DNA from: a phage
Reading direction: 5' to 3' (one strand)
Length of the DNA stretch: 52,935 bases
Assembly (NCBI GenBank): GCA_024614105.1
Contig: GCA_024614105.1_4894.1
Part shown: in pieces, positions 5,168-50,570 of the stretch
Position numbering within the stretch: position 1 is the stretch's first letter
How the letters are laid out: the number at the start of each line of letters is the position of its first letter
Made by a program: the position numbers and the translations under genes
Notes under the pieces: model-generated
Told to the model about the DNA's origin: nothing
The model's input: only the letters and a program-made list of their open reading frames with translations
The model's database searches: none

Positions 5168-5188
5168 CCCACAAACGGGACTAACAAA

Positions 5189-5216
5189 AGGCGGGCTGAC
5201 GAGCTCGCCTTTTTTA
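5189..5216 (+). terminator. intrinsic terminator after capsid gene
   Basis: GC-rich hairpin AGGCGGGCT / AGCTCGCCT followed by TTTTTT. Confidence 0.65.
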
Positions 5217-26068: not shown

Positions 26069-26270
26069 TAAGCCTGAAGTTGTTTATGTTGACAGGGTAG
26101 TCAAGGTTTATCCGCCTGGTGCGTACCTGGTTAAATGCCATAAGCCTGAATTAACAGGTAATACCTGGAAGGCAATAGGTCAGTTAGCTATTGAACGTGG
26201 AACAGCTCTTGATGATTGTGCAGACAAGATGGACAGCATAATTAGCTGGAGTAACAAAGGGGCCGAGTGA
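25995..26270 (+). CDS. o-spanin (Rz1-like outer membrane lipoprotein)
   Basis: Starts in +1 frame inside i-spanin gene; RBS AAGAAGGG; signal peptide with lipobox LNSC; extends past i-spanin stop. Confidence 0.6.
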   Translation: MTKRQKMIRALIPLLLLPFLNSCADKPEVVYVDRVVKVYPPGAYLVKCHKPELTGNTWKAIGQLAIERGTALDDCADKMDSIISWSNKGAE

Positions 26271-26285
26271 TGGCCCCTTTATTTG
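26257..26285. terminator. bidirectional terminator between convergent lysis (+) and replication (-) blocks
   Basis: AAGGGGCC / GGCCCCTT stem around the o-spanin stop codon, T-rich on both sides. Confidence 0.55.
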
Positions 26286-32010: not shown

Positions 32011-32046
32011 AAAAATAAAAAGGACCAGCGTTAACTGGTCCTTTTG
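32011..32046. terminator. bidirectional intrinsic terminator
   Basis: AGGACCAG / CTGGTCCT stem flanked by A-run (32011-32020) and T-run. Confidence 0.6.
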
Positions 32047-36480: not shown

Positions 36481-36512
36481 CCGTATACGAAAATAGGGGC
36501 CGAAGCCCCTAT
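36481..36512 (-). terminator. intrinsic terminator downstream of SSB-like gene
   Basis: Minus strand ATAGGGGC-UUCG-GCCCCTAT then UUUCG. Confidence 0.5.
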
Positions 36513-36533
36513 TGAATATCTACTCGGCAGGGA

Positions 36534-42542: not shown

Positions 42543-45051
42543 TATTCTTGGTCTGAAATACTTTAAGCCAGAAGGGATCCCCCAAGTCTTCAAAGATATG
42601 AAGCGCTGGGCCATCTTTGAGCTGACGTACGAAGACGAGACCCTCGAAGTTCAATCCAAACCTAAGAAACCTGCAAGAGCGCCATCAGGCCGTTCCTTCA
42701 GCACAACAGTGCCTGAAGAGTGGATGACTTTCGACGACGCCCTGACACGTTGTATCCGCAATCGTGAAATGAAGATTAAAGCTGTACAAGGTAACATCAC
42801 CTTTGTGCCGGCTTTGATTGTTCCTCGCCAGTGGTACTTTGTTGACCTGGACAACCATGAAGATAATCCAGACATTGAAGCAACCCACAAAGCGATAATT
42901 GAGGGTACCCGTGGTGCTTATGCTGAGACGTCAATCTCTGGCAAGGGGCAACACATTGCAATCCCTTTACCCTGGACTGCAGCAACATCTAAAGAGAAAG
43001 ACGAACAGCTGGACATCAAAATCCAGAAGGCTGAGATGTTCCTGGTAATGACAGGCAATGTATTGAGTGAGTTCAATGCTAATCCTGTTTCAGCCCGTGA
43101 ATGGCATGCGGCTATTGAGAAGTTCTTTCTTGAAGCAAGCGCACCTGACATTGATGTTGAGTTTGAGCAAGACGAAGACCGTGGCGAAGAGTATGATAAA
43201 GAGCTGTACGAACAGTTAGCAGACAATACTCGCTGGGCTTTAGAGCACTACCTGAATGAGCATGCACCAGACGGTGTTGGTGTGAGTAATGACGGTTCCG
43301 AACGGTTAAGCCGCATACTCAAAGACCTGCTTCGTGTAACCCGTAACTACGAAGTTACACAACGCATCTTCATGGCCAGCAAAGCTGCAGCATACGAAGG
43401 TCGCAGACCAAGCCGACACAACTTGTCTGTTGATAAGTATCACCAGTGGTTCAGTCGTGTCGGTAAGACTGTGCTGAAAGAAATGCAACGTGACGGCTTA
43501 TTCGTCAAGACCAAGTTTGCTCTTGACATCAACAAAGAGTTAGCCAAGAATTCAGGTGTCTCCCTGGCTGAGAACGTTGAATTCAAAGTCAACGACGATA
43601 TTCTGCCTTCTGATGTATTTGTCAAGACGGCCCCGTCCGGGTTTAAACGGCTTATTGCTGAGATACAGGATAACATATCTCCGGCTAACAGGGTTAACGA
43701 CTATGCAATCGGCACAGCTCTTAACATCCTGAGCAACTGCGCTGGTCGCAAGTATGTTTGTCCAGTAGGCGGTCATGCTAACTTCCTGGTAACCAACATC
43801 ATTCTTGTGGGTGGTTCATCAATCGGTAAATCGCTGTATACCGAGTTGTTCCCACAAATCCAGGCAAGTTTACCTGACACATCGCCTATCAGTCTTAACC
43901 GTATCCCAAGGGAGCAGACTTTTGCAACCAGGACGTTTGCTGAACTGATGTCCAACCCGTCATACCATTCAGTCCAGTTGTTCTATCCTGAATTTGGTCT
44001 GGCTTTAGGTTCTGGCTTACGCATGAATCCTAACAACCCGGACAACTTTCAGAAAGCTCTGATGGACGCTTCAACCAAGCGTAAGTTAGGCGGTATACTG
44101 ACAGGTATCAAACGTGCTAATGCTGATAATGATGTCAAGACAGTAAGCGAACCATGCTACTCTATCCTGGGTGACTCCACTCAAGAGCTTATCCTTGATA
44201 ACACCCGGAAGCAAGACTTCTCAAGTGGCTTTTTGCCCCGCTTCCTGTTCATCCCGAACTATGAACGAGCGGAGTTTGCCAAACCTGAGAAGGTAGGACG
44301 TCGCCAGCAGATTCGCCGTACATCCTTTTCAAAGGAGCTGATTGAGAAGCTGGAAGCAATCGCTTATGTGAATGCTATCCCGCCTAACGGTAAACTAAGG
44401 CACGACCCGATTCCTGTTTACGACGAGTCAGACGATGATGACTTCCTGTACGAGTACCAGTGCAATATTAATGACATGCGCCAGTATTACAGGGATAACG
44501 AAGTAGCATCTGCCTTTGTGGGCCGAATGGGTGAGTATGTATTCAATATAGCAGCACTTATTGGATTACTCGACAACTGGGATACTCCTGTAATGACCAG
44601 GGACAACATCGAATGGGCTTACAAATATGTTCTTCGTTGTATAACAGCCTGGGTCAATAACACAAGCAGGATAGTCGCACCACCAACTACCAACGCCGAA
44701 GTAGTGGACGGCTTCCTAAAAGTCTACAGGGACATTTTGGCCCTTTACACCAAAAGAGGATGGTCTGGCATAGTCAAGCATTATCCCGAAGGTGTTGTAA
44801 GAAGCTTACGGGAAGACCATCTGAAAATGAACGGGCTGAGCATATATGCTATCCGGCAATCATTAAGTTGGTTCAAGTCCAATTATGGCTTTAACATAAC
44901 CGCAAATAACAAGGTTATTGACGGTATGTTGCAGGACATGATTGACCAGGACTATTTAGCAGTCCAAATATACAAACCCACAAGAGGGAAATCGGCAAAT
45001 ATCTACTGTTTAACCGAACGGGGATACGACGAAGCCAAGAAACTTAAGTAA
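42517..45051 (+). CDS. primase-helicase: archaeo-eukaryotic-type primase-polymerase domain fused to P-loop helicase domain
   Basis: 844 aa; AEP-like motifs YFVDLDNHED and ETSISGKGQHIAIP in N-terminal third; P-loop GGSSIGKS in central region. Confidence 0.65.
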   Translation: MTMTSQPSDILGLKYFKPEGIPQVFKDMKRWAIFELTYEDETLEVQSKPKKPARAPSGRSFSTTVPEEWMTFDDALTRCIRNREMKIKAVQGNITFVPALIVPRQWYFVDLDNHEDNPDIEATHKAIIEGTRGAYAETSISGKGQHIAIPLPWTAATSKEKDEQLDIKIQKAEMFLVMTGNVLSEFNANPVSAREWHAAIEKFFLEASAPDIDVEFEQDEDRGEEYDKELYEQLADNTRWALEHYLNEHAPDGVGVSNDGSERLSRILKDLLRVTRNYEVTQRIFMASKAAAYEGRRPSRHNLSVDKYHQWFSRVGKTVLKEMQRDGLFVKTKFALDINKELAKNSGVSLAENVEFKVNDDILPSDVFVKTAPSGFKRLIAEIQDNISPANRVNDYAIGTALNILSNCAGRKYVCPVGGHANFLVTNIILVGGSSIGKSLYTELFPQIQASLPDTSPISLNRIPREQTFATRTFAELMSNPSYHSVQLFYPEFGLALGSGLRMNPNNPDNFQKALMDASTKRKLGGILTGIKRANADNDVKTVSEPCYSILGDSTQELILDNTRKQDFSSGFLPRFLFIPNYERAEFAKPEKVGRRQQIRRTSFSKELIEKLEAIAYVNAIPPNGKLRHDPIPVYDESDDDDFLYEYQCNINDMRQYYRDNEVASAFVGRMGEYVFNIAALIGLLDNWDTPVMTRDNIEWAYKYVLRCITAWVNNTSRIVAPPTTNAEVVDGFLKVYRDILALYTKRGWSGIVKHYPEGVVRSLREDHLKMNGLSIYAIRQSLSWFKSNYGFNITANNKVIDGMLQDMIDQDYLAVQIYKPTRGKSANIYCLTERGYDEAKKLK

Positions 45052-45055
45052 AATC

Positions 45056-45095
45056 AAGGGCTTAGGTAGATTATATACTTAAGCCCTTATTTTAT
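45056..45095 (+). terminator. intrinsic terminator after primase-helicase gene
   Basis: 11-bp stem AAGGGCTTAGG / CTTAAGCCCTT followed by ATTTTATAT..CTTTTT. Confidence 0.55.
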
Positions 45096-45175
45096 ATACT
45101 CTTTTTGGCTTTTTAAATTAGCTATAATTAGGTATAGAGCAAAAATATGGTCCTAAGCTCTTAATTTATATACTC
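45080..45175. repeat. 22-bp imperfect direct repeat, two copies
   Basis: TAAGCCCTTATTTTATATACTC (45080-45101) and TAAGCTCTTAATTTATATACTC (45154-45175). Confidence 0.6.
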
Positions 45176-45212
45176 ATTTTGAATTTATAATATATGGCCT
45201 CGATAAATAAAA

Positions 45213-45259
45213 ATAAAGGGGGTAATAAAGGGGATACAAGTACCGGATAAAAGGGGGTA
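45213..45259. repeat. three iteron-like 12-bp direct repeats ATAAAGGGGGTA
   Basis: Copies at 45213-45224, 45225-45236 and 45247-45259 in an AT-rich intergenic region. Confidence 0.55.
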
Positions 45260-45262
45260 TAT

Positions 45263-45310
45263 ATTTATTTATTATTATTATTATTATTATATATTATTAA
45301 TTATATTAGA
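45263..45310. repeat. (ATT)n microsatellite within AT-rich tract
   Basis: tttatttattattattattattattatatattattaattatatta. Confidence 0.7.
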
Positions 45311-45349
45311 AGTAATAAAAACAGCTACTTAGAGGCGTCTATATGTATG

Positions 45350-45385
45350 ATCCGGTTTATCTCTTTATTAATATCAGAACCGGAT
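45350..45385. other. 8-bp inverted repeat enclosing a 20-nt AT-rich loop
   Basis: ATCCGGTT ... AACCGGAT. Confidence 0.4.
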
Positions 45386-45449
45386 GAAAAAAATATTTTT
45401 CGCCAGCGAAAAATTTAAAAAGTTGACAATTGAGTGTAAAATATAGACG

Positions 45450-45478
45450 TTTACACTTATTTTTATATACGCTACAAT
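45450..45478 (+). promoter_or_regulatory. sigma70-type promoter (TTTACA-N17-TACAAT)
   Basis: -35 45450-45455, -10 45473-45478; an additional TTGACA hexamer at 45423-45428. Confidence 0.5.
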
Positions 45479-45521
45479 GTATGTTAATATGATTAAACAC
45501 AAATATTTGGAGGTTGTATAA

Positions 45522-45722
45522 TTGGACAATGAAAACGTTAAGAAAGCAATACTGTTATTGGCTGATGAAGTAGATTTATTGAGGGCTTATGCTCAAGCCA
45601 ATGGTGAGGGTAGAGCGCGATTGATTGGCCGGTTGAGAACTACCTGGAAACGTCAGGCTGAGAACGGTGTGTCTTTTGAAAAATTAATTGCACTTCTTAT
45701 GGAGATAACAGATAATGGTTAA
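45522..45722 (+). CDS. hypothetical small protein
   Basis: 66 aa; TTG start with RBS GGAGG 9 nt upstream; downstream of promoter 45450-45478. Confidence 0.35.
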   Translation: MDNENVKKAILLLADEVDLLRAYAQANGEGRARLIGRLRTTWKRQAENGVSFEKLIALLMEITDNG

Positions 45723-46146
45723 TATTCGGCAGAAAGGACAGAACTTTGAGCGCAAAATGGCTAAGAAGTTCAATAGCTCGTTCGGATTAACTGTTGAGCG
45801 CAATCTTCAACAGTCTATTAATGGCGGGGACGACTTGCTTGGTGTGCCGTTTTTCAGCGTTGAACTGAAGAAGCACAATACCAAGTCTATCGGAACATGG
45901 TGGAGACAGTGTGCGGCATCGGCAAAGGCGCAGAATAAGATGCCGGTACTGATATACGAACTACCAAGAAAACAGCCTGTCGTGGTGATGAATAAGGCTG
46001 ATGTGATTGACTGTTTTCCAAGTGGCACGACTTTTAACGAGGCATCGACCCGACTCTTTGTGGGTCTAGTAGAATTAACATGGGAACAATTTTGCCGGGT
46101 CTACAACTATTACGTTGCGCCCGGCACTCAATATCACGTCAATTAA
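45715..46146 (+). CDS. PD-(D/E)xK nuclease, Holliday-junction-resolvase-like
   Basis: 143 aa; GQNFERKMAKKF ... GGDDLLGV ... SVELKKH resembles the G..FER / D / E.K arrangement of Hjc-type resolvases. Confidence 0.45.
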   Translation: MVNIRQKGQNFERKMAKKFNSSFGLTVERNLQQSINGGDDLLGVPFFSVELKKHNTKSIGTWWRQCAASAKAQNKMPVLIYELPRKQPVVVMNKADVIDCFPSGTTFNEASTRLFVGLVELTWEQFCRVYNYYVAPGTQYHVN

Positions 46147-46328
46147 TCTTGTTTCAGCTCGTCGCAAATGACACGCTGATTTTTGGCAGGGATAATACCA
46201 AGATTTAGCAGGGTGTATGGACTATCAGCGACACATTGTTCAACGGTAGTCCATTCAGGTTTGGATTCAACAATTTTGTAACTACAATCATGAGTAGCCA
46301 CACATGTTGCCAGGATTAAGCCAATCAC
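46143..46328 (-). CDS. hypothetical small protein with N-terminal hydrophobic segment
   Basis: 61 aa, GTG start overlapping upstream stop (GTGA), RBS GAAGGTGA; N-terminus IGLILATCVA. Confidence 0.35.
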   Translation of the reverse strand: MIGLILATCVATHDCSYKIVESKPEWTTVEQCVADSPYTLLNLGIIPAKNQRVICDELKQD

Positions 46329-46504
46329 AAGTAATCACCTTCAACCAGAAATTCAAACAGCTGGTTGTAAACGTTGCAACCTTTAGCGAAAGAGCTTTCA
46401 GCAGGTTTACCGTCGCGGACAATCATCATATACTCACCGCCATGGATGTCCACCCAGTATTGCATGCCACCTTTGACCGGGTTACGTTGTAAGAATTTAA
46501 ACAT
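46325..46504 (-). CDS. hypothetical small protein (not in ORF track)
   Basis: 59-aa ORF found by hand (MFKFLQRNPVKGGMQYWVDIHGG...), RBS GGAG, TAATG coupling with upstream gene. Confidence 0.3.
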   Translation of the reverse strand: MFKFLQRNPVKGGMQYWVDIHGGEYMMIVRDGKPAESSFAKGCNVYNQLFEFLVEGDYL

Positions 46505-46749
46505 TATTTGCTCCTTATTCCAAGTTTATTCAATAGCCACACTGTCATGTCAACCCAGGTTAACGGTACAGTTTTCGGGGGTTGATAATTCCAGCAGCTT
46601 GCAGTTCTTTGTATTTCTGCTTGGCGCCGCTCCGCTTCGCGTAGTACCGCATCGTCAGAAGTGCTGGCAGAAAAAAGATCGGTAACACCAGATAAATCGC
46701 GTTGATTAACACGTCGAGCAATGTCATATAAGTCATCCTTAGAAAACAT
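46504..46749 (-). CDS. hypothetical protein
   Basis: 81 aa. Confidence 0.4.
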   Translation of the reverse strand: MFSKDDLYDIARRVNQRDLSGVTDLFSASTSDDAVLREAERRQAEIQRTASCWNYQPPKTVPLTWVDMTVWLLNKLGIRSK

Positions 46750-46864
46750 AAGCCAATACCATAAGAATTACCAGAAAGATCCCAACCAGCTTCCTCATCG
46801 CCCGACCTTCAGCATATGCAGGATTCACAACAGAATACTCAACAACATGTTTACAGCGGACCAT
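46739..46864 (-). CDS. hypothetical small membrane peptide (not in ORF track)
   Basis: 41-aa ORF with strong RBS GGAGG 5 nt upstream and hydrophobic C-terminus (LVGIFLVILMVLAYVF). Confidence 0.3.
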   Translation of the reverse strand: MVRCKHVVEYSVVNPAYAEGRAMRKLVGIFLVILMVLAYVF

Positions 46865-46888
46865 AAGGCCTCCACTTGTGGGTTAATT

Positions 46889-46935
46889 CAATCATGAGGA
46901 CTTTCATCAAATCCTCATTGTTGAACCAATTACCA
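46889..46935. repeat. intergenic hairpin element, copy 1 (family with conserved flanks)
   Basis: caatc-ATGAGGACT-ttcatca-AATCCTCAT-tgttgaaccaattac. Confidence 0.5.
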
Positions 46936-46955
46936 GCGTCAGGACTTTGTTGATA

Positions 46956-47156
46956 TTACTCTATCATTACCTGAACTACTATTATACACTCTTTATTGAA
47001 GCGAGTAAACACTTTTCCACCATTAGTGCGTTTAGCCCCAGATTTTAGAGCTGACTGGCACCAGATATGCCACTCCTCAACTGTCAAGAATTTTTGTTCA
47101 GCTTTGGGTGGCAATCCATGGGCAAGGTCTACCGTAGTAAATTTGACTAATGGCAT
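46956..47156 (-). CDS. hypothetical small protein
   Basis: 66 aa from ATG 47156; TGATG coupling. Confidence 0.35.
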   Translation of the reverse strand: MPLVKFTTVDLAHGLPPKAEQKFLTVEEWHIWCQSALKSGAKRTNGGKVFTRFNKECIIVVQVMIE

Positions 47157-47545
47157 CACTTGACCTCAAATTTTGACTCGTCATATTCCGGATCAGTCAC
47201 GTCCCGGGTCGCACAATTTTTGATTGCCTCCCAGTAACGTTGGGCATCATCGCCATCGACATAAACTGTCCAGTGGCCGTAACCACCTTCAAATCTGTCC
47301 CAGGCTTGTTCCCAGACTTTGCCATCTTCCAGCTTGTACCAAGTTGGACGACTGTCAAACTCGCGGATTGGATGGTACCCCATCAAGGGATTCATCAGGT
47401 CAATAATGTCTTCCCGACTAATCTCCTGGTTCTCCCACAACACCGTCATGAATTGCTCAAACTTGAAGGCGTTTGGCAGAACTTTGATGACTTCACCATC
47501 ACGATATACGGTATAGGTGCCATCTTCGCATTTTGCACTGTACAT
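47156..47545 (-). CDS. hypothetical protein
   Basis: Start moved to ATG 47545 (MYSAKCEDG) with strong RBS AGGAGAGAG; upstream hairpin element in leader. Confidence 0.45.
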   Translation of the reverse strand: MYSAKCEDGTYTVYRDGEVIKVLPNAFKFEQFMTVLWENQEISREDIIDLMNPLMGYHPIREFDSRPTWYKLEDGKVWEQAWDRFEGGYGHWTVYVDGDDAQRYWEAIKNCATRDVTDPEYDESKFEVK

Positions 47546-47570
47546 GTTTCTCTCTCCTATTGATATAATT

Positions 47571-47615
47571 TCAATCATGAACTATCACAACTTTGGATAG
47601 TTCATTGTTGAAACT
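47571..47615. repeat. intergenic hairpin element, copy 3
   Basis: caatc-ATGAACTATC-acaactttg-GATAGTTCAT-tgttgaaactatac; perfect 10-bp stem. Confidence 0.5.
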
Positions 47616-47787
47616 ATACTAACTTTGTTACAATCTGAATTGTCAGCCGGAAATCTTCCATCAAGTTATCAAACTCTTTGGAACCACCAACAGCGTCAGA
47701 AATTTGGTCTTTGACTATCTGGGCATTTGATTCCAGTAATTCAATCAGGTGCGCCAATTCGTCTTCAGTCAATTTCAGATCTTTCAT
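47614..47787 (-). CDS. small acidic helical protein, member of a three-paralog family
   Basis: 57 aa (MKDLKLTEDELAHLIELLES...); ATGA coupling; paralogous to 48047-48205 and 48909-49082. Confidence 0.4.
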   Translation of the reverse strand: MKDLKLTEDELAHLIELLESNAQIVKDQISDAVGGSKEFDNLMEDFRLTIQIVTKLV

Positions 47788-48041
47788 AATGCATCCACCC
47801 AAGCCATAACTTTTGCCAGTTTTACAACGTCGTCATGGTCCCGCTCGCCATCAGAAAATTCGCTGGCGATGATACCCATAATTGACGCCAGATTCATATT
47901 GATGATGTAGGCGTGTTGGCGCACTTCATCAATTCCTGAATCTATCACCAGCTCCGCAAATTCTTGTGAACCTTCATCCCATTCAGCCCAATACTGTTCA
48001 GCATAAAAGTCCAGTTCTTTTTTCATCTCAATGTCAGTCAT
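47784..48041 (-). CDS. hypothetical small acidic protein
   Basis: 85 aa. Confidence 0.4.
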   Translation of the reverse strand: MTDIEMKKELDFYAEQYWAEWDEGSQEFAELVIDSGIDEVRQHAYIINMNLASIMGIIASEFSDGERDHDDVVKLAKVMAWVDAL

Positions 48042-48046
48042 TTTGA

Positions 48047-48205
48047 TTACTCCTCAGAACCTGAAAATTTGTCATCAATGGACTCAACAATATAATCAAG
48101 AGTTGAAGTGTGAGAACTATCAGAAAAAGTGCCCATCTTCTCCAGCTCAATCATCATATCCCGTAAAGCCATTGCCTGGTCTTTGGTCAGTTTAATTTTA
48201 AGCAT
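48047..48205 (-). CDS. small acidic helical protein, member of a three-paralog family
   Basis: 52 aa from ATG 48205 (MLKIKLTKDQAMALRDMM...) with RBS AGGAGAGAG; hairpin element upstream. Confidence 0.4.
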   Translation of the reverse strand: MLKIKLTKDQAMALRDMMIELEKMGTFSDSSHTSTLDYIVESIDDKFSGSEE

Positions 48206-48230
48206 GTCTCTCTCCTGTTGATTGTGAATA

Positions 48231-48270
48231 ATTTCAATTGATGGCACTACTTGAGTGCCATCTCAAAAAT
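48231..48270. repeat. intergenic hairpin element, copy 4
   Basis: caatt-GATGGCACT-acttg-AGTGCCATC-tcaaaaattac; perfect 9-bp stem. Confidence 0.5.
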
Positions 48271-48812
48271 TACTCTTCAGTTTCTTGGGTTTCAGGTTTT
48301 TGACCAGTCACAGACTTGCCCTCAGTCACTTTACCAGATTTTACATCATTCCGGTAGTATGACATATATGACTGGATAACTCTTTTGGCTTTGATGTCAT
48401 CCGCTTCCATCCCACAGGCTTTCATGGCATCAACTAGGGCCAGTTTGGAATCTTCCTTGTCCATCAGGTTATAGTCCTTAAATACCAGATAACAAGTATC
48501 TTTGGTTGATGGACCAGATGACTTCCGGGCCCCGCCATTGGAAGATTTTGATGCCACAACTTTGACCTCTTCCACTTCCAGTTGGTTCAGTTCATCAAAC
48601 AATGCCTTGACCAACACTTCTTTTGAGTCCTTGACACTTACAGTACTTTCATCATTAAGGGACTTAATCATCTTAATGATCTGGTTATTGGCAAAGTACT
48701 GAAGACTATCCATCTGCACTACAATAGTCCCAAGACTTTCAGTAGTCAGACCAGATTTTACAGACTCAACAGAAAAGGCGGAAGTCAGGTAAACATAGTT
48801 GATAGTTGTCAT
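48270..48812 (-). CDS. hypothetical protein
   Basis: About 180 aa from ATG 48812 (MTTINYVYL), RBS-like AGGA upstream; largest gene of the small-gene block. Confidence 0.45.
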   Translation of the reverse strand: MTTINYVYLTSAFSVESVKSGLTTESLGTIVVQMDSLQYFANNQIIKMIKSLNDESTVSVKDSKEVLVKALFDELNQLEVEEVKVVASKSSNGGARKSSGPSTKDTCYLVFKDYNLMDKEDSKLALVDAMKACGMEADDIKAKRVIQSYMSYYRNDVKSGKVTEGKSVTGQKPETQETEE

Positions 48813-48868
48813 TTGATGTATCCTCATTGATAGAATTTTTGATAGGTGTCAATCCTTGACAAGTAAAT

Positions 48869-48912
48869 CCAATCATGAGGACTTTTACCAAGTCCCCATT
48901 GTTGGAAATTAC
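48869..48912. repeat. intergenic hairpin element, copy 2
   Basis: caatc-ATGAGGACT-tttacca-AGTCCCCAT-tgttggaaattac; near-identical to copy 1. Confidence 0.5.
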
Positions 48913-49082
48913 TTCAACTTAACCAGAATTGATTGGAGTAACTTGACCCTCACTTCCTGGTCTTTGACATCCCTTCCACTCTCCCTGTCATATTCCAACA
49001 GGTCACTTTCCATAAATAAAGTAGTGTCCAATTGGTCAACCAATAATTCCAGTTCTTCTTGGGACAATTCTAAAACTTTCAT
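48909..49082 (-). CDS. small acidic helical protein, member of a three-paralog family
   Basis: 57 aa from ATG 49082 (MKVLELSQEELELLVDQL...) with RBS AGGAG. Confidence 0.4.
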   Translation of the reverse strand: MKVLELSQEELELLVDQLDTTLFMESDLLEYDRESGRDVKDQEVRVKLLQSILVKLK

Positions 49083-49086
49083 CTTA

Positions 49087-49233
49087 TTACTCCTGATATT
49101 TAACAACTTGGGATTGGATAAAGTCAACACAATCTTCCACATCCATTGATTCAAAGTCTGGAACTGGACCATTGTTTATATTGACACACCAAAGCCCTTC
49201 ATTGGTATCATACCAAAGTGTGTAGTTGTCCAT
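49087..49233 (-). CDS. hypothetical small protein
   Basis: 48 aa from ATG 49233 (MDNYTLWYD) with RBS AGAGGTGA; first gene of the small-gene block. Confidence 0.3.
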   Translation of the reverse strand: MDNYTLWYDTNEGLWCVNINNGPVPDFESMDVEDCVDFIQSQVVKYQE

Positions 49234-49260
49234 CTTAATAGTCACCTCTTGTACTAGTTT

Positions 49261-49306
49261 CCAGTTGTGACTACTGTTACCAATAGTCACTGGTTGAAAC
49301 TATTAC
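49261..49306. repeat. intergenic hairpin element, copy 5 (imperfect)
   Basis: CCAGTTGTGACT...AGTCACTGG followed by conserved flank ttgaaactattac. Confidence 0.35.
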
Positions 49307-49623
49307 TAGTGTTACTATCAACAAGAAACATGTTACCAGATTGTTAAAGAGCAAAAGGTACCATTAACATCTACCAGATGTACCTGTTGACTGGTTAAGT
49401 ACTACCTACCCAAATTAAACCATACCAATACCCTCCAGACCAGTTGACTGGTCACTCAGTCATCACATTCAATAAATATATAATAGTCCAATCCCTCTTG
49501 ATTGTACACCTTATATTTGTAAGTTTATGCAAGTTTTTAGAAATGATAATCACTTGCGATTGAGAGTGGTTCTCATATGCAATTGATATAGTTTCACATG
49601 TAATTACTCAACTCAAAATGGTC

Positions 49624-49680
49624 GGCAGGGGTTATAATCACATAGGGGTGCCACTTAAAGGAGCCGGCGAAATTATTTCT
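49624..49680. repeat. direct repeat unit A (about 50 bp) in noncoding control region
   Basis: GGCAGGGGTTATAATCACATAGGGGTGCCACTTAAAGGAGCCGGCGAAATT; shares GGGGTGCYAC and GGAGCCRGCRAAATT blocks with unit B. Confidence 0.5.
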
Positions 49681-49800
49681 AAAAATATAATTTCAATCTG
49701 AATTATAGACGCTTTGTACTATACCGGCCGAAGTAGTTCACACGGTAATTGTACCAATCATAATAGTTACCAGGGTAATCATTTCAATTGAAATAGGTGC

Positions 49801-49860
49801 GGCGGGGGGTAATTTCGCAGGGGTGCTACCTGCCAGGAGCCAGCAAAATTTTTTTATTTT
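49801..49860. repeat. direct repeat unit B (about 50 bp) in noncoding control region
   Basis: GGCGGGGGGTAATTTCGCAGGGGTGCTACCTGCCAGGAGCCAGCAAAATTTTTTTATTTT; a third partial AAAATTTTTTTATATTTTTC tract at 49947-49975. Confidence 0.5.
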
Positions 49861-50084
49861 TTCTCTATTTTCTCCTTATCAGGACCAATCATCATCAGAT
49901 TGATACAACAGGAGCTAACCTTTTGCCTAACACAATAATAAGTGAAGCCCCTCTAAAATTTTTTTATATTTTTCGGAAATTGTGTAGACACTCACTAAAA
50001 AGTGGTGTACTTTCTCTCCTCCACGCGCTATCATTAATGCGAATAATCAAACGGCCTCACGGTCTCCTACTTGTGGGTAACATT

Positions 50085-50570
50085 ATGAAAATTGTTCAAT
50101 TAGAGCCATATCCGCCTCAATTGGCTATCGTTTGTAGCGAAAAAGAGCACGAAGAGCTCCAAAAACTGATGGATTTGCCTGATTTTGGCAACTGGAATGA
50201 CCGCGAAACGCGTACTGCATCTACCTTTACGTTCTCTCGCGTTAACTATCCGTACCTGTTAATCGTCGTCGAGCTGTACCACCCGGACGACCTGAAGTAC
50301 AACACCATTTCCCACGAAGGCATTCACGTAATGTCATCGCTGATGAACTATGTTGGCCTTAAATACGACCCAGAAAACGATGAATGGTACGCATATCAGC
50401 ATGATTTCATCGTAAATGCCATTTGTAAGGCCCATGACGAGTATACAGAGCGCCAAAAAGCGCCAAAAACTAAGCAAAAAATCGAAACAGGCAATCATCC
50501 TGTGATACAGCCACAAGACGTTATGAACTCGCTTTTGACTGACACTACTGGGGACTTTTTAGGTGATTAA
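50085..50570 (+). CDS. hypothetical protein with HExxH motif (possible small zinc metalloprotein)
   Basis: 161 aa from ATG 50085 (MKIVQLEPY); HEGIH followed by Glu about 20 residues later; upstream part of the longer ORF lacks RBS. Confidence 0.45.
   Translation: MKIVQLEPYPPQLAIVCSEKEHEELQKLMDLPDFGNWNDRETRTASTFTFSRVNYPYLLIVVELYHPDDLKYNTISHEGIHVMSSLMNYVGLKYDPENDEWYAYQHDFIVNAICKAHDEYTERQKAPKTKQKIETGNHPVIQPQDVMNSLLTDTTGDFLGD

Follow-up and report, generated by a model that had tools for sequence, protein, structure and literature searches.

Five long, bipartite hairpins in the small-gene operon of this phage have a paired structure that is selected at the RNA level. With moderate confidence, we interpret them as folded RNA signals within an early polycistronic mRNA, with recognition by host RNase III as the most likely mechanism. 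Among the three functions put forward in the original prediction (RNase processing, translational control and the binding of a phage regulator), processing, and specifically processing by RNase III, appears to fit best. The same hairpins mark the boundaries of gene modules whose presence or order differs among related phages through insertion, deletion or permutation.

A hairpin family in the small-gene operon

The window, by which we mean the whole stretch of DNA analyzed, is a complete Rosemountvirus genome (52.9 kb). Its small-gene operon (46143..49233, minus strand), laid out from the list of open reading frames and a reading of the sequence, comprises g1-g2, hairpin c4, g3 (185 aa), hairpin c3, g4-g6, hairpin c2, g7-g8, a hairpin remnant (hA) followed by hairpin c1, and g9-g12. 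No Pfam family and no RNA-binding or nuclease domain was found in any of the ten cluster proteins scanned (g1-g8, g10 and g11), and their PHROG matches are of unknown function. Gene callers run one open reading frame into the ATG of a hairpin. In related phages, the counterpart of the whole hairpin region is the direct terminal repeat, and the conserved non-coding leader 5’ of the first hairpin, c5 (49308..49810, minus strand; promoter scan and alignment), is homologous to the beginning of the direct terminal repeat (3,699 bp) of fHy-Eco03. The scan placed promoter-like sites in this leader at 49508->49480 (TGTACA-17-TATTAT) and 49787->49760 (TTGAAA-16-TATTAT); an alignment of four lineages shows no variation in the -35 TGTACA and a -10 that occurs only as TATTAT or CATAAT. 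Judged from these sequences, the leader likely holds one or more early promoters.

A covariance model built on 20 family members (five from the window and 15 from relatives) was significant on the sense strand at just five places across the window (E 8e-11 to 4e-5); all five are on the minus strand, and no further match reached E < 0.3. All five sites named in the original prediction were recovered, including the copy at 49261-49306 that it had called imperfect: this copy is a significant match (E 2e-5), with z -2.7. The hairpins share the orientation of the genes and, within the 52.9 kb, are confined to the small-gene operon. Genome-wide, 24 minus-sense hairpins have a stem of at least 9 bp, compared with ~6 expected from shuffles, and 6 of these 24 fall within 46.9-49.7 kb. 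The search of related phages that had been proposed as a check revealed 4-6 copies in each relative, in the stretches examined; Rfam covariance models gave no match at E <= 1 on either strand of 44800-50200.

All elements follow one plan: a lower stem of 5-12 bp, AU-rich and usually containing the stop codon of the upstream gene, above it a CA/GA internal loop (2x2), and then an upper stem of ~10 bp capped by a loop of 3-9 nt, with inverted-repeat arms of 17-29 nt. The motifs caat(c/t) and tgttg(a/g)a...attac, previously taken for conserved flanks, are complementary and form the lower stem, which carries the upstream stop codon. Across 39 distinct copies, the CA/GA loop is present in 22 and is larger in the c3 and c5 types, and in 34 a stop triplet occupies the same position of the lower stem. 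The upper stem measures 9-12 bp (mode 10), or about 11 with the inner loop mismatch; once the lower stem, and for c4 its second lower helix, is counted, all five window copies span 21-26 helical positions. Read from base to loop, the upper stem starts with AU-UA-GC in 16/39 copies and AU-AU-GC in 4/39; its second pair is A-U or U-A in nearly all copies and its third is G-C in 34/39. The internal loop and neighbouring pairs are conserved, the middle pairs of the upper stem vary freely, and the apical loops are not conserved. Predicted folding energies of the window copies range from -22.5 to -27.1 kcal/mol, and four of the five reach z of -4.6 to -6.6 against dinucleotide shuffles (0/200 shuffles as good).

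The first copy, c5 (49251..49307; 33.4 bits; -27.1 kcal/mol), sits in the 5’ leader ~20 nt before the first small gene (ATG 49233), with no open reading frame upstream. Its upper stem GUGACUAUUG/CAGUAGUCAC carries a GUAA loop and stands on a larger internal loop (AACCA/AACUG) and a lower stem GUUUC../..GAAAC; the element is kept in relatives L001-L006 and L008. Next, c4 (48859..48916; 51.2 bits; -26.1 kcal/mol, z -6.0) follows g2, whose stop TAA (48911-48909) lies within the lower stem, and the downstream start codon is ~60 nt away; the lower stem UCCAA/UUGGA is compensatory with respect to the UUCAA/UUGAA of other copies, the loop is CA/GA, and the upper stem AUGGGGACUU/AAGUCCUCAU is replaced by AUGACAACUU/AAGUUGUCAU in orthologues. 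Hairpin c3 (48224..48277; 32.6 bits; -22.5 kcal/mol, z -4.6) comes after the 185-aa gene, with the stop TAA (48272-48270) in the lower stem GAGUAAUUU/AAAUUAUUC, an internal loop UGA/AAUU and an upper stem GAUGGCACU/AGUGCCAUC, the place of which is taken by CAGACCUCU/AGAGGUCUG at Loughboroughvirus-like loci.

Hairpin c2 (47561..47621; 50.5 bits; -25.8 kcal/mol, z -6.6) follows g6 (stop TAG 47616-47614) and has a 12-bp lower stem UAUAGUUUCAA/UUGAAAUUAUA, a CA/GA loop and an upper stem AUGAACUAUC/GAUAGUUCAU, its 23-nt inverted-repeat arms being 87% complementary. The last copy, c1 (46878..46934; 55.1 bits; -23.3 kcal/mol, z -5.0), lies upstream of g9 (ATG 46864) and combines a 9-bp lower stem and a CA/GA loop with the upper stem AUGAGGAUUU/AAGUCCUCAU, in which a U.G wobble is conserved. 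Comparison with relatives identified the stretch AGUAAUAUCAACAAAGUCCUG (46940..46960, minus strand) as the 5’ half of a sixth hairpin, hA, which includes the g8 stop codon and whose 3’ half is deleted in the window phage; intact hA (stem AAGUCCCG../..CGGGGCUU) occurs in L003, L004, L005 and L006, and L007 has an AAG..CUU hairpin resembling it. A Shine-Dalgarno sequence stands 5-10 nt past the lower stem in c2, c3 and c1. As had been noted earlier, every hairpin is 20-60 nt ahead of a minus-strand start codon, and a leader ATTGAAATTAT...AGGAGAGAG follows two of the copies.

Selection on the RNA structure

In an alignment of 20 distinct copies, 83% of cells are paired, compared with 68% in shuffles, and both sides have changed in 14/19 pairs. 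The covariation score is 0.48 versus 0.21 in shuffles (0/500 shuffles reach 0.48), and slid controls score 0.09-0.21. At orthologous sites of relatives the upper stem has an entirely different sequence with the pairing kept, and the lower stem occurs as UUCAA/UUGAA, UCCAA/UUGGA, AUUAA/UUAAU and UUUUUA/UAAAAA. The original prediction had noticed stems that differ in sequence and stay paired, and had taken compensatory change as a sign of selection rather than chance; both points are borne out, with whole upper stems swapped compensatorily. It had also left the choice between RNA and DNA structure undecided. The sense fold beats the antisense fold in 34/39 distinct copies (mean -23.0 versus -19.1 kcal/mol), so the selected structure is RNA and the DNA half of that proposal falls away; likewise, G.U wobbles kept on the sense strand are A.C mismatches on the other.

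Candidate RNase III processing

RNase III is present in the hosts, E. coli and Salmonella. Resemblance to the T7 sites and to the published RNase III determinants forms the basis of our reading; the transcript, its cleavage, the cut position and any effect on mRNA stability or translation are inferred. The determinants comprise at least 11 bp from cut to loop, with ~22 bp, or about two helical turns, for full contacts; a proximal box with G-C at pb1, A-U or U-A at pb2 (G-C and C-G are excluded as inhibitory), A-U at pb3 and a mismatch (U.C in R1.1) tolerated at pb4; and, close to the loop, a distal box of U-A / U.G (PMC1540722). An internal loop that gives single-strand cleavage and a stabilizing 3’ hairpin is established for RNase III substrates (PMC3867540).

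The hairpins reach the required span, with 21-26 helical positions in total and about 11 in the upper stem plus the inner loop mismatch (PMC1540722), and their predicted structure contains an internal loop at the presumed target site, 2x2 CA/GA in 22/39 copies, which would restrict cleavage to one strand (PMC3867540). When the boxes are placed in the R1.1 register, which is an assumption, the proximal box is exact (AUG/CAU) in c1, c2 and c4, c3 needs a 1-bp shift, and c5 has G-C at pb3; an alternative register, in which the 2x2 loop supplies the two positions between cuts, would place an inhibitory G-C at pb2 (PMC1540722). The conserved AUG/CAU and the flanks could also simply stem from recent duplication or recombination among the copies. 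The distal box in the R1.1 register is canonical in c1, c5 and their orthologues, consists of U-A alone in c2 and c4, and is missing from c3. Counting from the inner loop mismatch, base pairs 2, 4, 8, 9 and 10 of c1 equal those of T7 R1.1, as do base pairs 8-10 of c5 (7-9 from the stem base; A-U, U.G, U-A).

Host RNA polymerase most likely produces the early mRNA from sigma-70-type promoter(s) at ~49.5-49.8 kb. Each element begins at the upstream gene's stop codon. Under RNase III processing, the enzyme would dock on the upper stem, and the mismatched loop would limit it to a single 3’-side cut, inside ...CAU|GA|U|UGAA or immediately beyond. This would leave the upstream message with a protective hairpin at its end, and the downstream message would start ~15-30 nt ahead of its Shine-Dalgarno sequence (~60 nt for c4). 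A ~3.3-kb precursor would in this way be split into g1-2, g3, g4-6, g7-8 and g9-12 mRNAs, with the leader trimmed at c5 much as R0.3 trims the gene 0.3 leader in T7. If these are RNase III sites, this common group of Salmonella/E. coli biocontrol phages would organize its host-takeover operon like T7, in that a host enzyme would cut a long terminal-repeat early transcript into stable mRNAs, each of a defined length, and the predicted transcript units and their dependence on host rnc would provide a handle on about a dozen early genes without known function. The ~40 natural hairpin variants also make a compact set for studies of RNase III determinants. The papers retrieved on Rosemountvirus are mainly genome descriptions, with no transcript-mapping study among the titles listed.

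Generic intercistronic stabilizers, which would protect against 3’ exonucleases or punctuate RNase E decay so that module half-lives differ with no RNase III cut, could account for hairpins that are stable (-19 to -27 kcal/mol), lie immediately 3’ of stop codons and each travel with the upstream gene. A plain barrier, however, needs neither the CA/GA loop found in 22/39 copies nor the A-U/U-A/G-C base, neither a covarying lower stem nor a constant span of ~22 positions, and c5 has no upstream gene to protect; we regard this explanation as unlikely.

Conservation of the internal loop and its neighbouring pairs amid otherwise variable sequence would suit a site bound by a phage or host protein that controls translation or antitermination in the early operon. 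Alternatively, the closed stem might couple translation from stop codon to ribosome-binding site, in keeping with the stop codon fixed in the lower stem (34/39) and the Shine-Dalgarno sequence 5-10 nt beyond it in c2, c3 and c1. The absence of RNA-binding and nuclease domains from the ten scanned cluster proteins and of any Rfam match speaks against a protein site, as do apical loops that vary, unlike those of boxB-type sites; coupling is weakened by c5, which lacks an upstream open reading frame, and by c4, which is 60 nt from the start codon. We consider this pair of possibilities improbable.

Module joints and comparison with known systems

A module map of the operon against six relatives places the homology breakpoints between these phages at the hairpins, a role as junctions of shuffled gene modules that the original prediction had overlooked. 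The window has an extra gene, g2, that is missing from L003; L003 and L005 have an extra gene of ~300 nt between hA and c1; L004 carries hA and c1 in tandem; and in fHy-Eco03, KE25 and L007 the g3+c3 module is placed after the g7-g8 module. Every type of hairpin moves together with its upstream gene, c3 always being found 3’ of the 185-aa gene even where the gene order has changed. Because the elements share 15-25 nt, they act as recombination joints for modules of one or more genes plus a 3’ hairpin, recombination being a side effect, or possibly a second role, of the elements. The map, in which ORFan genes are gained, lost and reordered at defined joints, is useful for annotation and phage engineering.

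That the elements are mainly recombination linkers, permitting the exchange, excision or insertion of gene-plus-hairpin modules as promoter-less analogues of the promoter-early stem-loops (PeSLs) of T4-type phages with a secondary RNA role, would explain the breakpoints and is compatible with a junction position that fits the PeSL definition (PMC2839356). Recombination, however, requires sequence identity and not pairing, whereas here the stems diverge and yet stay paired; G.U pairs favour sense RNA, the elements lack the sigma-70 promoter of PeSL composition, and repeated functional sequences could give rise to shuffling as a by-product. We find it doubtful that linkage is their main role.

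It is very unlikely that the hairpins grade transcription along the operon as weak factor-independent terminators or attenuators. A simple scan marginally flagged only c4 (48875-48899, tail GAUUGGAUUU), and T4-type PeSL stem-loops do terminate (PMC2839356), but the T-rich tail is missing in 4/5 copies, the GAUUGAAA that follows the upper stem pairs back as lower stem in a pairing upheld by covariation, and the genome has canonical GC-rich stems with A/T tracts elsewhere (5186, 26253, 32018, 36492 and 45056), in line with the earlier statement that the hairpins, having no U-run, are not intrinsic terminators. DNA-level cruciforms or palindromic operators are just as remote, for although the elements are imperfect palindromes whose opposite strand scores 16-30 bits with the family model, a dimeric operator needs no self-complementary variable center, and the retained sense-strand G.U pairs, the better sense folds and the orientation of all copies with the genes point to RNA.

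The early RNase III sites of T7 (R0.3, R0.5, R1, R1.1 and R1.3) offer the closest parallel for the RNase III reading. Reportedly, Dunn and Studier in 1983 placed T7 cuts at positions 890, 1468 and 5887. Like the hairpins, the T7 sites lie between early polycistronic cistrons near a genome end, with one copy in a 5’ leader (R0.3), and form bipartite hairpins with an AU-rich lower stem that contains stop codons (GAGUGAUAG in R0.5), an internal loop and, above it, an upper stem of 9-10 bp capped by a small loop (4-5 nt in the folds compared). Also in common are an upper-stem base of A-U, A-U or U-A, and G-C, a helical span of ~22 positions (PMC1540722, PMC3867540), the U.G/U-A near the loop that two window copies (c1 and c5) share with R1.1, and, on the 3’ side, CAUGAUUG and the reading AUGAUU(G) (..UUUAUGAUUGACC in R1.1 and ..UUUAUGAUUAUC in R0.5, versus ..CUCAUGAUUGAA in the hairpins). 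The hairpin loop, by contrast, is a symmetric 2x2 CA/GA and that of T7 an asymmetric 4/5-nt loop; the hairpin upper stems are AU-richer and all different between copies, whereas the T7 sites share AAGGUC..GGCCUU; and the phage is an unrelated myovirus, with no phage RNA polymerase identified in the genome of the related Loughboroughvirus S144 (PMC7432712). With default filters the family covariance model matched no T7 site at E <= 1, and with filters off it gave only three T7 matches (E 1.5-9), at R0.5 (antisense strand), R1 and R0.3, which are what any hairpin model would pick out. Since the model finds no meaningful T7 match, the resemblance is one of architecture and a short motif and not demonstrated homology.

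The PeSL cassettes of T4-type phages (Arbiol et al. 2010, PMC2839356; Comeau et al. 2014, PMC4122927) are likewise repeated composite motifs between small ORFans of a hyperplastic early region, with a stem-loop containing G.U pairs and with the breakpoints of insertions, deletions, replacements and reorderings inside the motifs. PeSLs are defined as elements at stop-codon-to-Shine-Dalgarno junctions that mediate shuffling (PMC2839356), and the hairpins occupy this interval and flank the indels and replacements that distinguish related phages. They differ in having no sigma-70 promoter, no polyG/polyC stems and no terminator tail, and in a long, bipartite stem-loop whose internal loop is conserved. 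In the promoter scan, no promoter-like site overlapped any of the five hairpins, the nearest being a 9/12 match downstream of c4. The string TGAAATTAT could be taken for an extended -10, but it belongs to the covarying lower stem and is missing from c1, c4 and c5.

A tentative further reading, possible though well short of probable, would make each element a dual-purpose, promoter-less module joint: an RNA signal starting at the stop codon, read by RNase III or by a factor that recognizes the CA/GA loop, and at the same time the vehicle of a gene-plus-hairpin cassette. Termination of one cistron would be coupled to processing or re-initiation at the next, and cassettes would move within the terminal repeat and between Rosemountvirus and Loughboroughvirus phages. 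If true, this would represent a second, independent instance of PeSL-type shuffling, arising from a processing site and not from a promoter-terminator.

Short intergenic palindromic repeats are also found in bacterial operons, where Correia/nemis elements (Neisseria), REP/BIME and ERIC sequences form hairpins that are cleaved by RNase III or act as stabilizers. The phage hairpins resemble these repeats as short repeated palindromes transcribed within operons, where they may likewise affect mRNA processing or stability. The bacterial repeats lie scattered over chromosomes, often in both orientations, and some of them have terminal inverted repeats and are mobile; the phage hairpins form a set of five copies in a single orientation that belongs to one phage operon, with a stop codon tied to every copy.

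Five bipartite hairpins in a minus-strand operon

The hairpins are confined to the early operon, a run of small minus-strand genes (g1-g12) extending from 49233 down to ~46143. The window is in essence a complete Rosemountvirus genome, because 61 phage records match the 3.3-kb hairpin region in a DNA search and the annotated relatives are classified in that genus. The best matches, 95-97% identical across the full region, are Salmonella phages SPLA12, brunost and 8-19 and Escherichia phages JEP7 and PiR; the genomes of JEP7 and PiR are 52,936 bp long. GenBank PP583539 ('Listeria phage 220426122051') is 95.7% identical to the Salmonella/E. coli phage region; the host named in that record seems questionable, and contamination or a wrong label may lie behind it. 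In the relative fHy-Eco03, the homologous stretch and 0.5 kb of upstream non-coding region are annotated as a 3,699-bp direct terminal repeat, based on PhageTerm (PMC8145870), and by homology the repeat would occupy roughly 45.4-49.8 kb of the window; it is collapsed in most deposited genomes. Ten cluster proteins gave no family in Pfam and only matches of unknown function in PHROG, with no nuclease or RNA-binding candidate among them in these scans. For a related Loughboroughvirus, an RNA polymerase gene was not identified and the authors propose use of the host polymerase (PMC7432712).

Reading of the minus strand, RNA folding and a covariance model agree that all five sites of the original prediction are real: c5 (49251-49307), c4 (48859-48916), c3 (48224-48277), c2 (47561-47621) and c1 (46878-46934). 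Each is much longer than first described, and the left and right flanks, which had been set apart from the stem, proved able to pair with each other (inverted-repeat arms 17-29 nt long, with 76-87% complementarity), with RNA folding giving one bipartite hairpin per copy. In the predicted folds of the five copies, an AU-rich lower stem of 5-12 bp leads through an internal loop (2x2 CA/GA in c1, c2 and c4, UGA/AAUU in c3, five by five in c5) to an upper stem of 9-12 bp and an apical loop of 4-5 nt, for a total helical span of ~21-26 positions in all window copies. Folding energies range from -22.5 to -27.1 kcal/mol across the five, with z-scores of -4.6 to -6.6 in four copies and -2.7 in c5.

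An energy-only sliding-window hairpin scan of the whole genome did not discriminate (~300 windows per strand passed -17 kcal/mol) and was replaced by a perfect-stem finder and the covariance model. Based on 20 copies and run without filters on the whole genome, the model found the five minus-strand sites and nothing else below E 0.3. An Rfam search gave no match, and we found no published description of these elements in the literature. Besides the known relatives, an exact-pattern scan of IMG/VR (TTCAACAATG-N17-33-CATGATTGAA) returned only three unrelated contigs (L011, L014 and L015), which lack a structured match and were rejected as chance hits.

Selection for RNA structure

We compared nine related loci, of which the most distant are just 62-63% identical at the protein level in g3, the 185-aa gene, and found four to six hairpin copies per locus in the stretches examined. 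At orthologous sites the upper stem changes from AUGGGGACUU/AAGUCCUCAU to AUGACAACUU/AAGUUGUCAU in c4 and from GAUGGCACU/AGUGCCAUC to CAGACCUCU/AGAGGUCUG in c3, and other types among the relatives include AAGUCCCG/CGGGGCUU and AUGCGGUAU/GUACCGCAU. Lower stems covary as well (UUCAA/UUGAA, UCCAA/UUGGA, AUUAA/UUAAU, UUUUUA/UAAAAA).

Pairs were counted on the 20-copy alignment, complemented by separate counts on sense matches, and an alignment that mixed sense and antisense matches was left out. Across the 20 distinct copies, 83% of cells were paired, compared with 68 +/- 1.5% after shuffling, and 14/19 pairs showed change on both sides. The covariation score was 0.48, against 0.21 in shuffled alignments (0/500 shuffles reached the observed value) and 0.09-0.21 with partners slid. 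The earlier proposal that compensatory change marks a selected structure therefore holds, as paired cells, two-sided changes and covariation score all exceed their controls. Moreover, in 34 of 39 distinct copies the sense RNA folds more stably than the antisense (mean -23.0 versus -19.1 kcal/mol), an effect of the G.U wobbles retained on the sense strand. As many of the copies are orthologues, a nominal P overstates independence, but the direction is consistent. The structure is thus under selection at the RNA level.

Proposed processing of the early transcript and competing readings

The best-supported mechanism is, in our analysis, processing of a polycistronic early transcript by host RNase III in the manner of T7, to which we give roughly even chances. 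It is established that an internal loop can restrict RNase III to one cut, which leaves a stabilising 3' hairpin (PMC3867540). The hairpins might instead be generic stabilisers. Conservation is seen in the first three upper-stem pairs, which are in turn A-U, U-A or A-U, and G-C (the G-C in 34/39 copies); the next five positions each hold four to seven different pair types, and apical loops show none.

A second possibility, that the hairpins are recombination linkers, draws on pairwise comparison, in which homology to relatives breaks at the hairpins. Mapping gene homologues and hairpins gave the window order c5, g1 g2, c4, g3, c3, g4-6, c2, g7 g8, c1, g9-12, with the 5' half of a sixth hairpin (hA, 46940-46960) retained before c1. 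In locus L003, g2 is missing, hA is intact and an extra ~300-nt gene precedes c1; L004 carries other sequence between c5 and c4, with no g1/g2 homologues, and has hA and c1 in tandem; in L005, g4 and g7 are replaced. The order in fHy-Eco03 is c5, g1' g6, c2, g7' g8', hY (its hairpin before g3), g3, c3, g9-12, and KE25 and L007 share its late order (g8', hairpin, g3, c3, g9-12) in the stretches examined, so the g3+c3 module is placed differently from that of the window. Each hairpin type stays with its upstream gene, the behaviour described for the promoter-early stem-loop (PeSL) cassettes of T4-type phages (PMC2839356), although the defining promoter of those cassettes is absent here and the stem-loop is of a different kind. 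In our reading the shuffling follows from the repetition of functional sequences, and it may also be a second role.

The protein encoded by g3 (48270-48827, minus strand) has ~32%-identity homologues in many T4-like coliphages, one annotated 'rho-N domain-containing protein', and LC-MS/MS is the basis on which its orthologue in fHy-Eco03 (gp07) carries the annotation virion-associated, unexpected for a gene of an early terminal-repeat operon. Inside the gene, 48651-48682 holds a short tandem and inverted repeat (CTTAATCAT x2.2; ATCATTAAG/CTTAATGAT); some deposited relatives have a 'repeat_region' annotated at about the equivalent of this position, at the opposite gene end.

A protein-binding or translational-coupling signal would fit the placement of stop codons. 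In 34/39 copies a stop triplet occupies one fixed spot of the lower stem, on its 5' strand and 6-7 nt ahead of the internal loop; in the window it is the actual stop codon of g2, g3 and g6, and the conserved 'ATTA' of the right flank is its pairing partner. Hairpin c5 has no upstream gene; it is part of the 5' leader and precedes the first start codon by ~20 nt, and sequence reading found no in-frame uORF ending at its TAATAG. Separately, a mechanical ORF (47156-47578, minus strand) begins at an ATG inside c2 (CATGATTG), in frame with the genuine start codon (47545) behind the Shine-Dalgarno sequence AGGAGAGAG; gene callers might make this gene 11 codons too long.

A role as weak terminators is a further rival reading. 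The elements contrast with the other strong hairpins of the genome, at 5186-5213, 26253-26283, 32018-32045, 36492-36513 and 45056-45088, which are of a different kind, with GC-rich stems flanked by A- and T-tracts in the style of classical terminators. The first four, several of them readable on both strands, are probably the true intrinsic terminators of the phage, partly bidirectional. The fifth lies in an AT-rich non-coding stretch (45040-45560) downstream of the primase gene, together with three iteron-like AATAAAGGGGGT repeats (45212-45258), a (TTA)13 microsatellite (45269-45308) and a 28-nt direct repeat with copies 370 nt apart; being near the putative terminal-repeat end, this stretch may be an origin, packaging or repeat-boundary feature.

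A promoter scan found no sigma-70-like promoter overlapping any copy. A promoter reading in which the hairpin separates a -35 (UUCAAC) from an extended -10 (UGAAAUUAU), an arrangement of some PeSLs, was rejected, since the two motifs are ~35 nt apart, the scan found no promoter, and these 'boxes' show the covariation of a stem and are not the same in c1, c4 and c5. The only well-conserved promoter-like site upstream is TGTACA-17-TATTAT (49508->49480), whose -10 varies only between TATTAT and CATAAT in four lineages. The 0.5-kb non-coding leader (49310-49810), also conserved in four lineages, contains a C-rich tract (ACCCCCCGCCGCACC) at the starting point of the terminal repeat of fHy-Eco03, and a conserved AU hairpin (49668-49695) with the hairpin-family string GATTGAAATTAT repeated in its 5' arm.

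Sites acting at the DNA level, such as a cruciform or palindromic operator, are unlikely, because the sense RNA folds better than the antisense.

Comparison with the RNase III sites of T7

We folded the five early RNase III sites of T7 from its sequence record; these sites are not among the listed features of records NC_001604 and V01146. Cut coordinates are those reported by Dunn and Studier in 1983. They were cross-checked against the description of a U.C pair at position pb4 of the proximal box and a 2-nt overhang (PMC1540722). The determinants set out by Pertzev and Nicholson are at least 11 bp from cut to loop, with ~22 bp for full contacts; a proximal box with G-C at pb1, A-U or U-A at pb2 (where G-C or C-G blocks binding), A-U at pb3, and a pb4 that adjoins the scissile bond and is the U.C mismatch in natural R1.1; and a distal box, U-A/U.G, near the loop (PMC1540722).

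If the inner mismatch of CA/GA is assumed to correspond to the U.C pair of R1.1, c1, c2 and c4 read pb3 A-U, pb2 U-A and pb1 G-C; AAG/CUU-type hairpins then agree exactly with T7, and c3 needs a shift of one pair to fit. Hairpins c1 and c5 share A-U, U.G and U-A with R1.1 at three equivalent positions, and a canonical distal box is present in only 2/5 window copies. In this assumed register the 3' strand would be cut two nucleotides past the pb4 partner (CAUGAU|U), while alignment to the T7 sites by sequence would place the cut at CAU|GAU. Unlike in-vivo double-cleavage sites, which prefer paired G-C at two central positions (PMC6212723), the window hairpins lack such pairs and are thus consistent only with the single-cleavage class.

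The family covariance model gave no meaningful hit at the T7 sites, and common descent of the copies could account for the AUG/CAU conservation. The T7 sites share the plan of the window hairpins: the lower stem is AU-rich, an internal loop follows, and the upper stem (9-10 bp) ends in a loop of 4-5 nt. The upper stems of R0.3, R0.5, R1.1 and R1.3 begin AAG...CUU, and the 3' sides run ..UUUAUGAUAUUC in R0.3, ..UUUAUGAUUAUC in R0.5 and ..UUUAUGAUUGACC in R1.1, compared with ..CUCAUGAUUGAA in the window family. The lower stem of R0.5 (GAGUGAUAG) includes the stop codon of gene 0.4, and R0.3, like c5 in the window, is a leader element upstream of the first gene.
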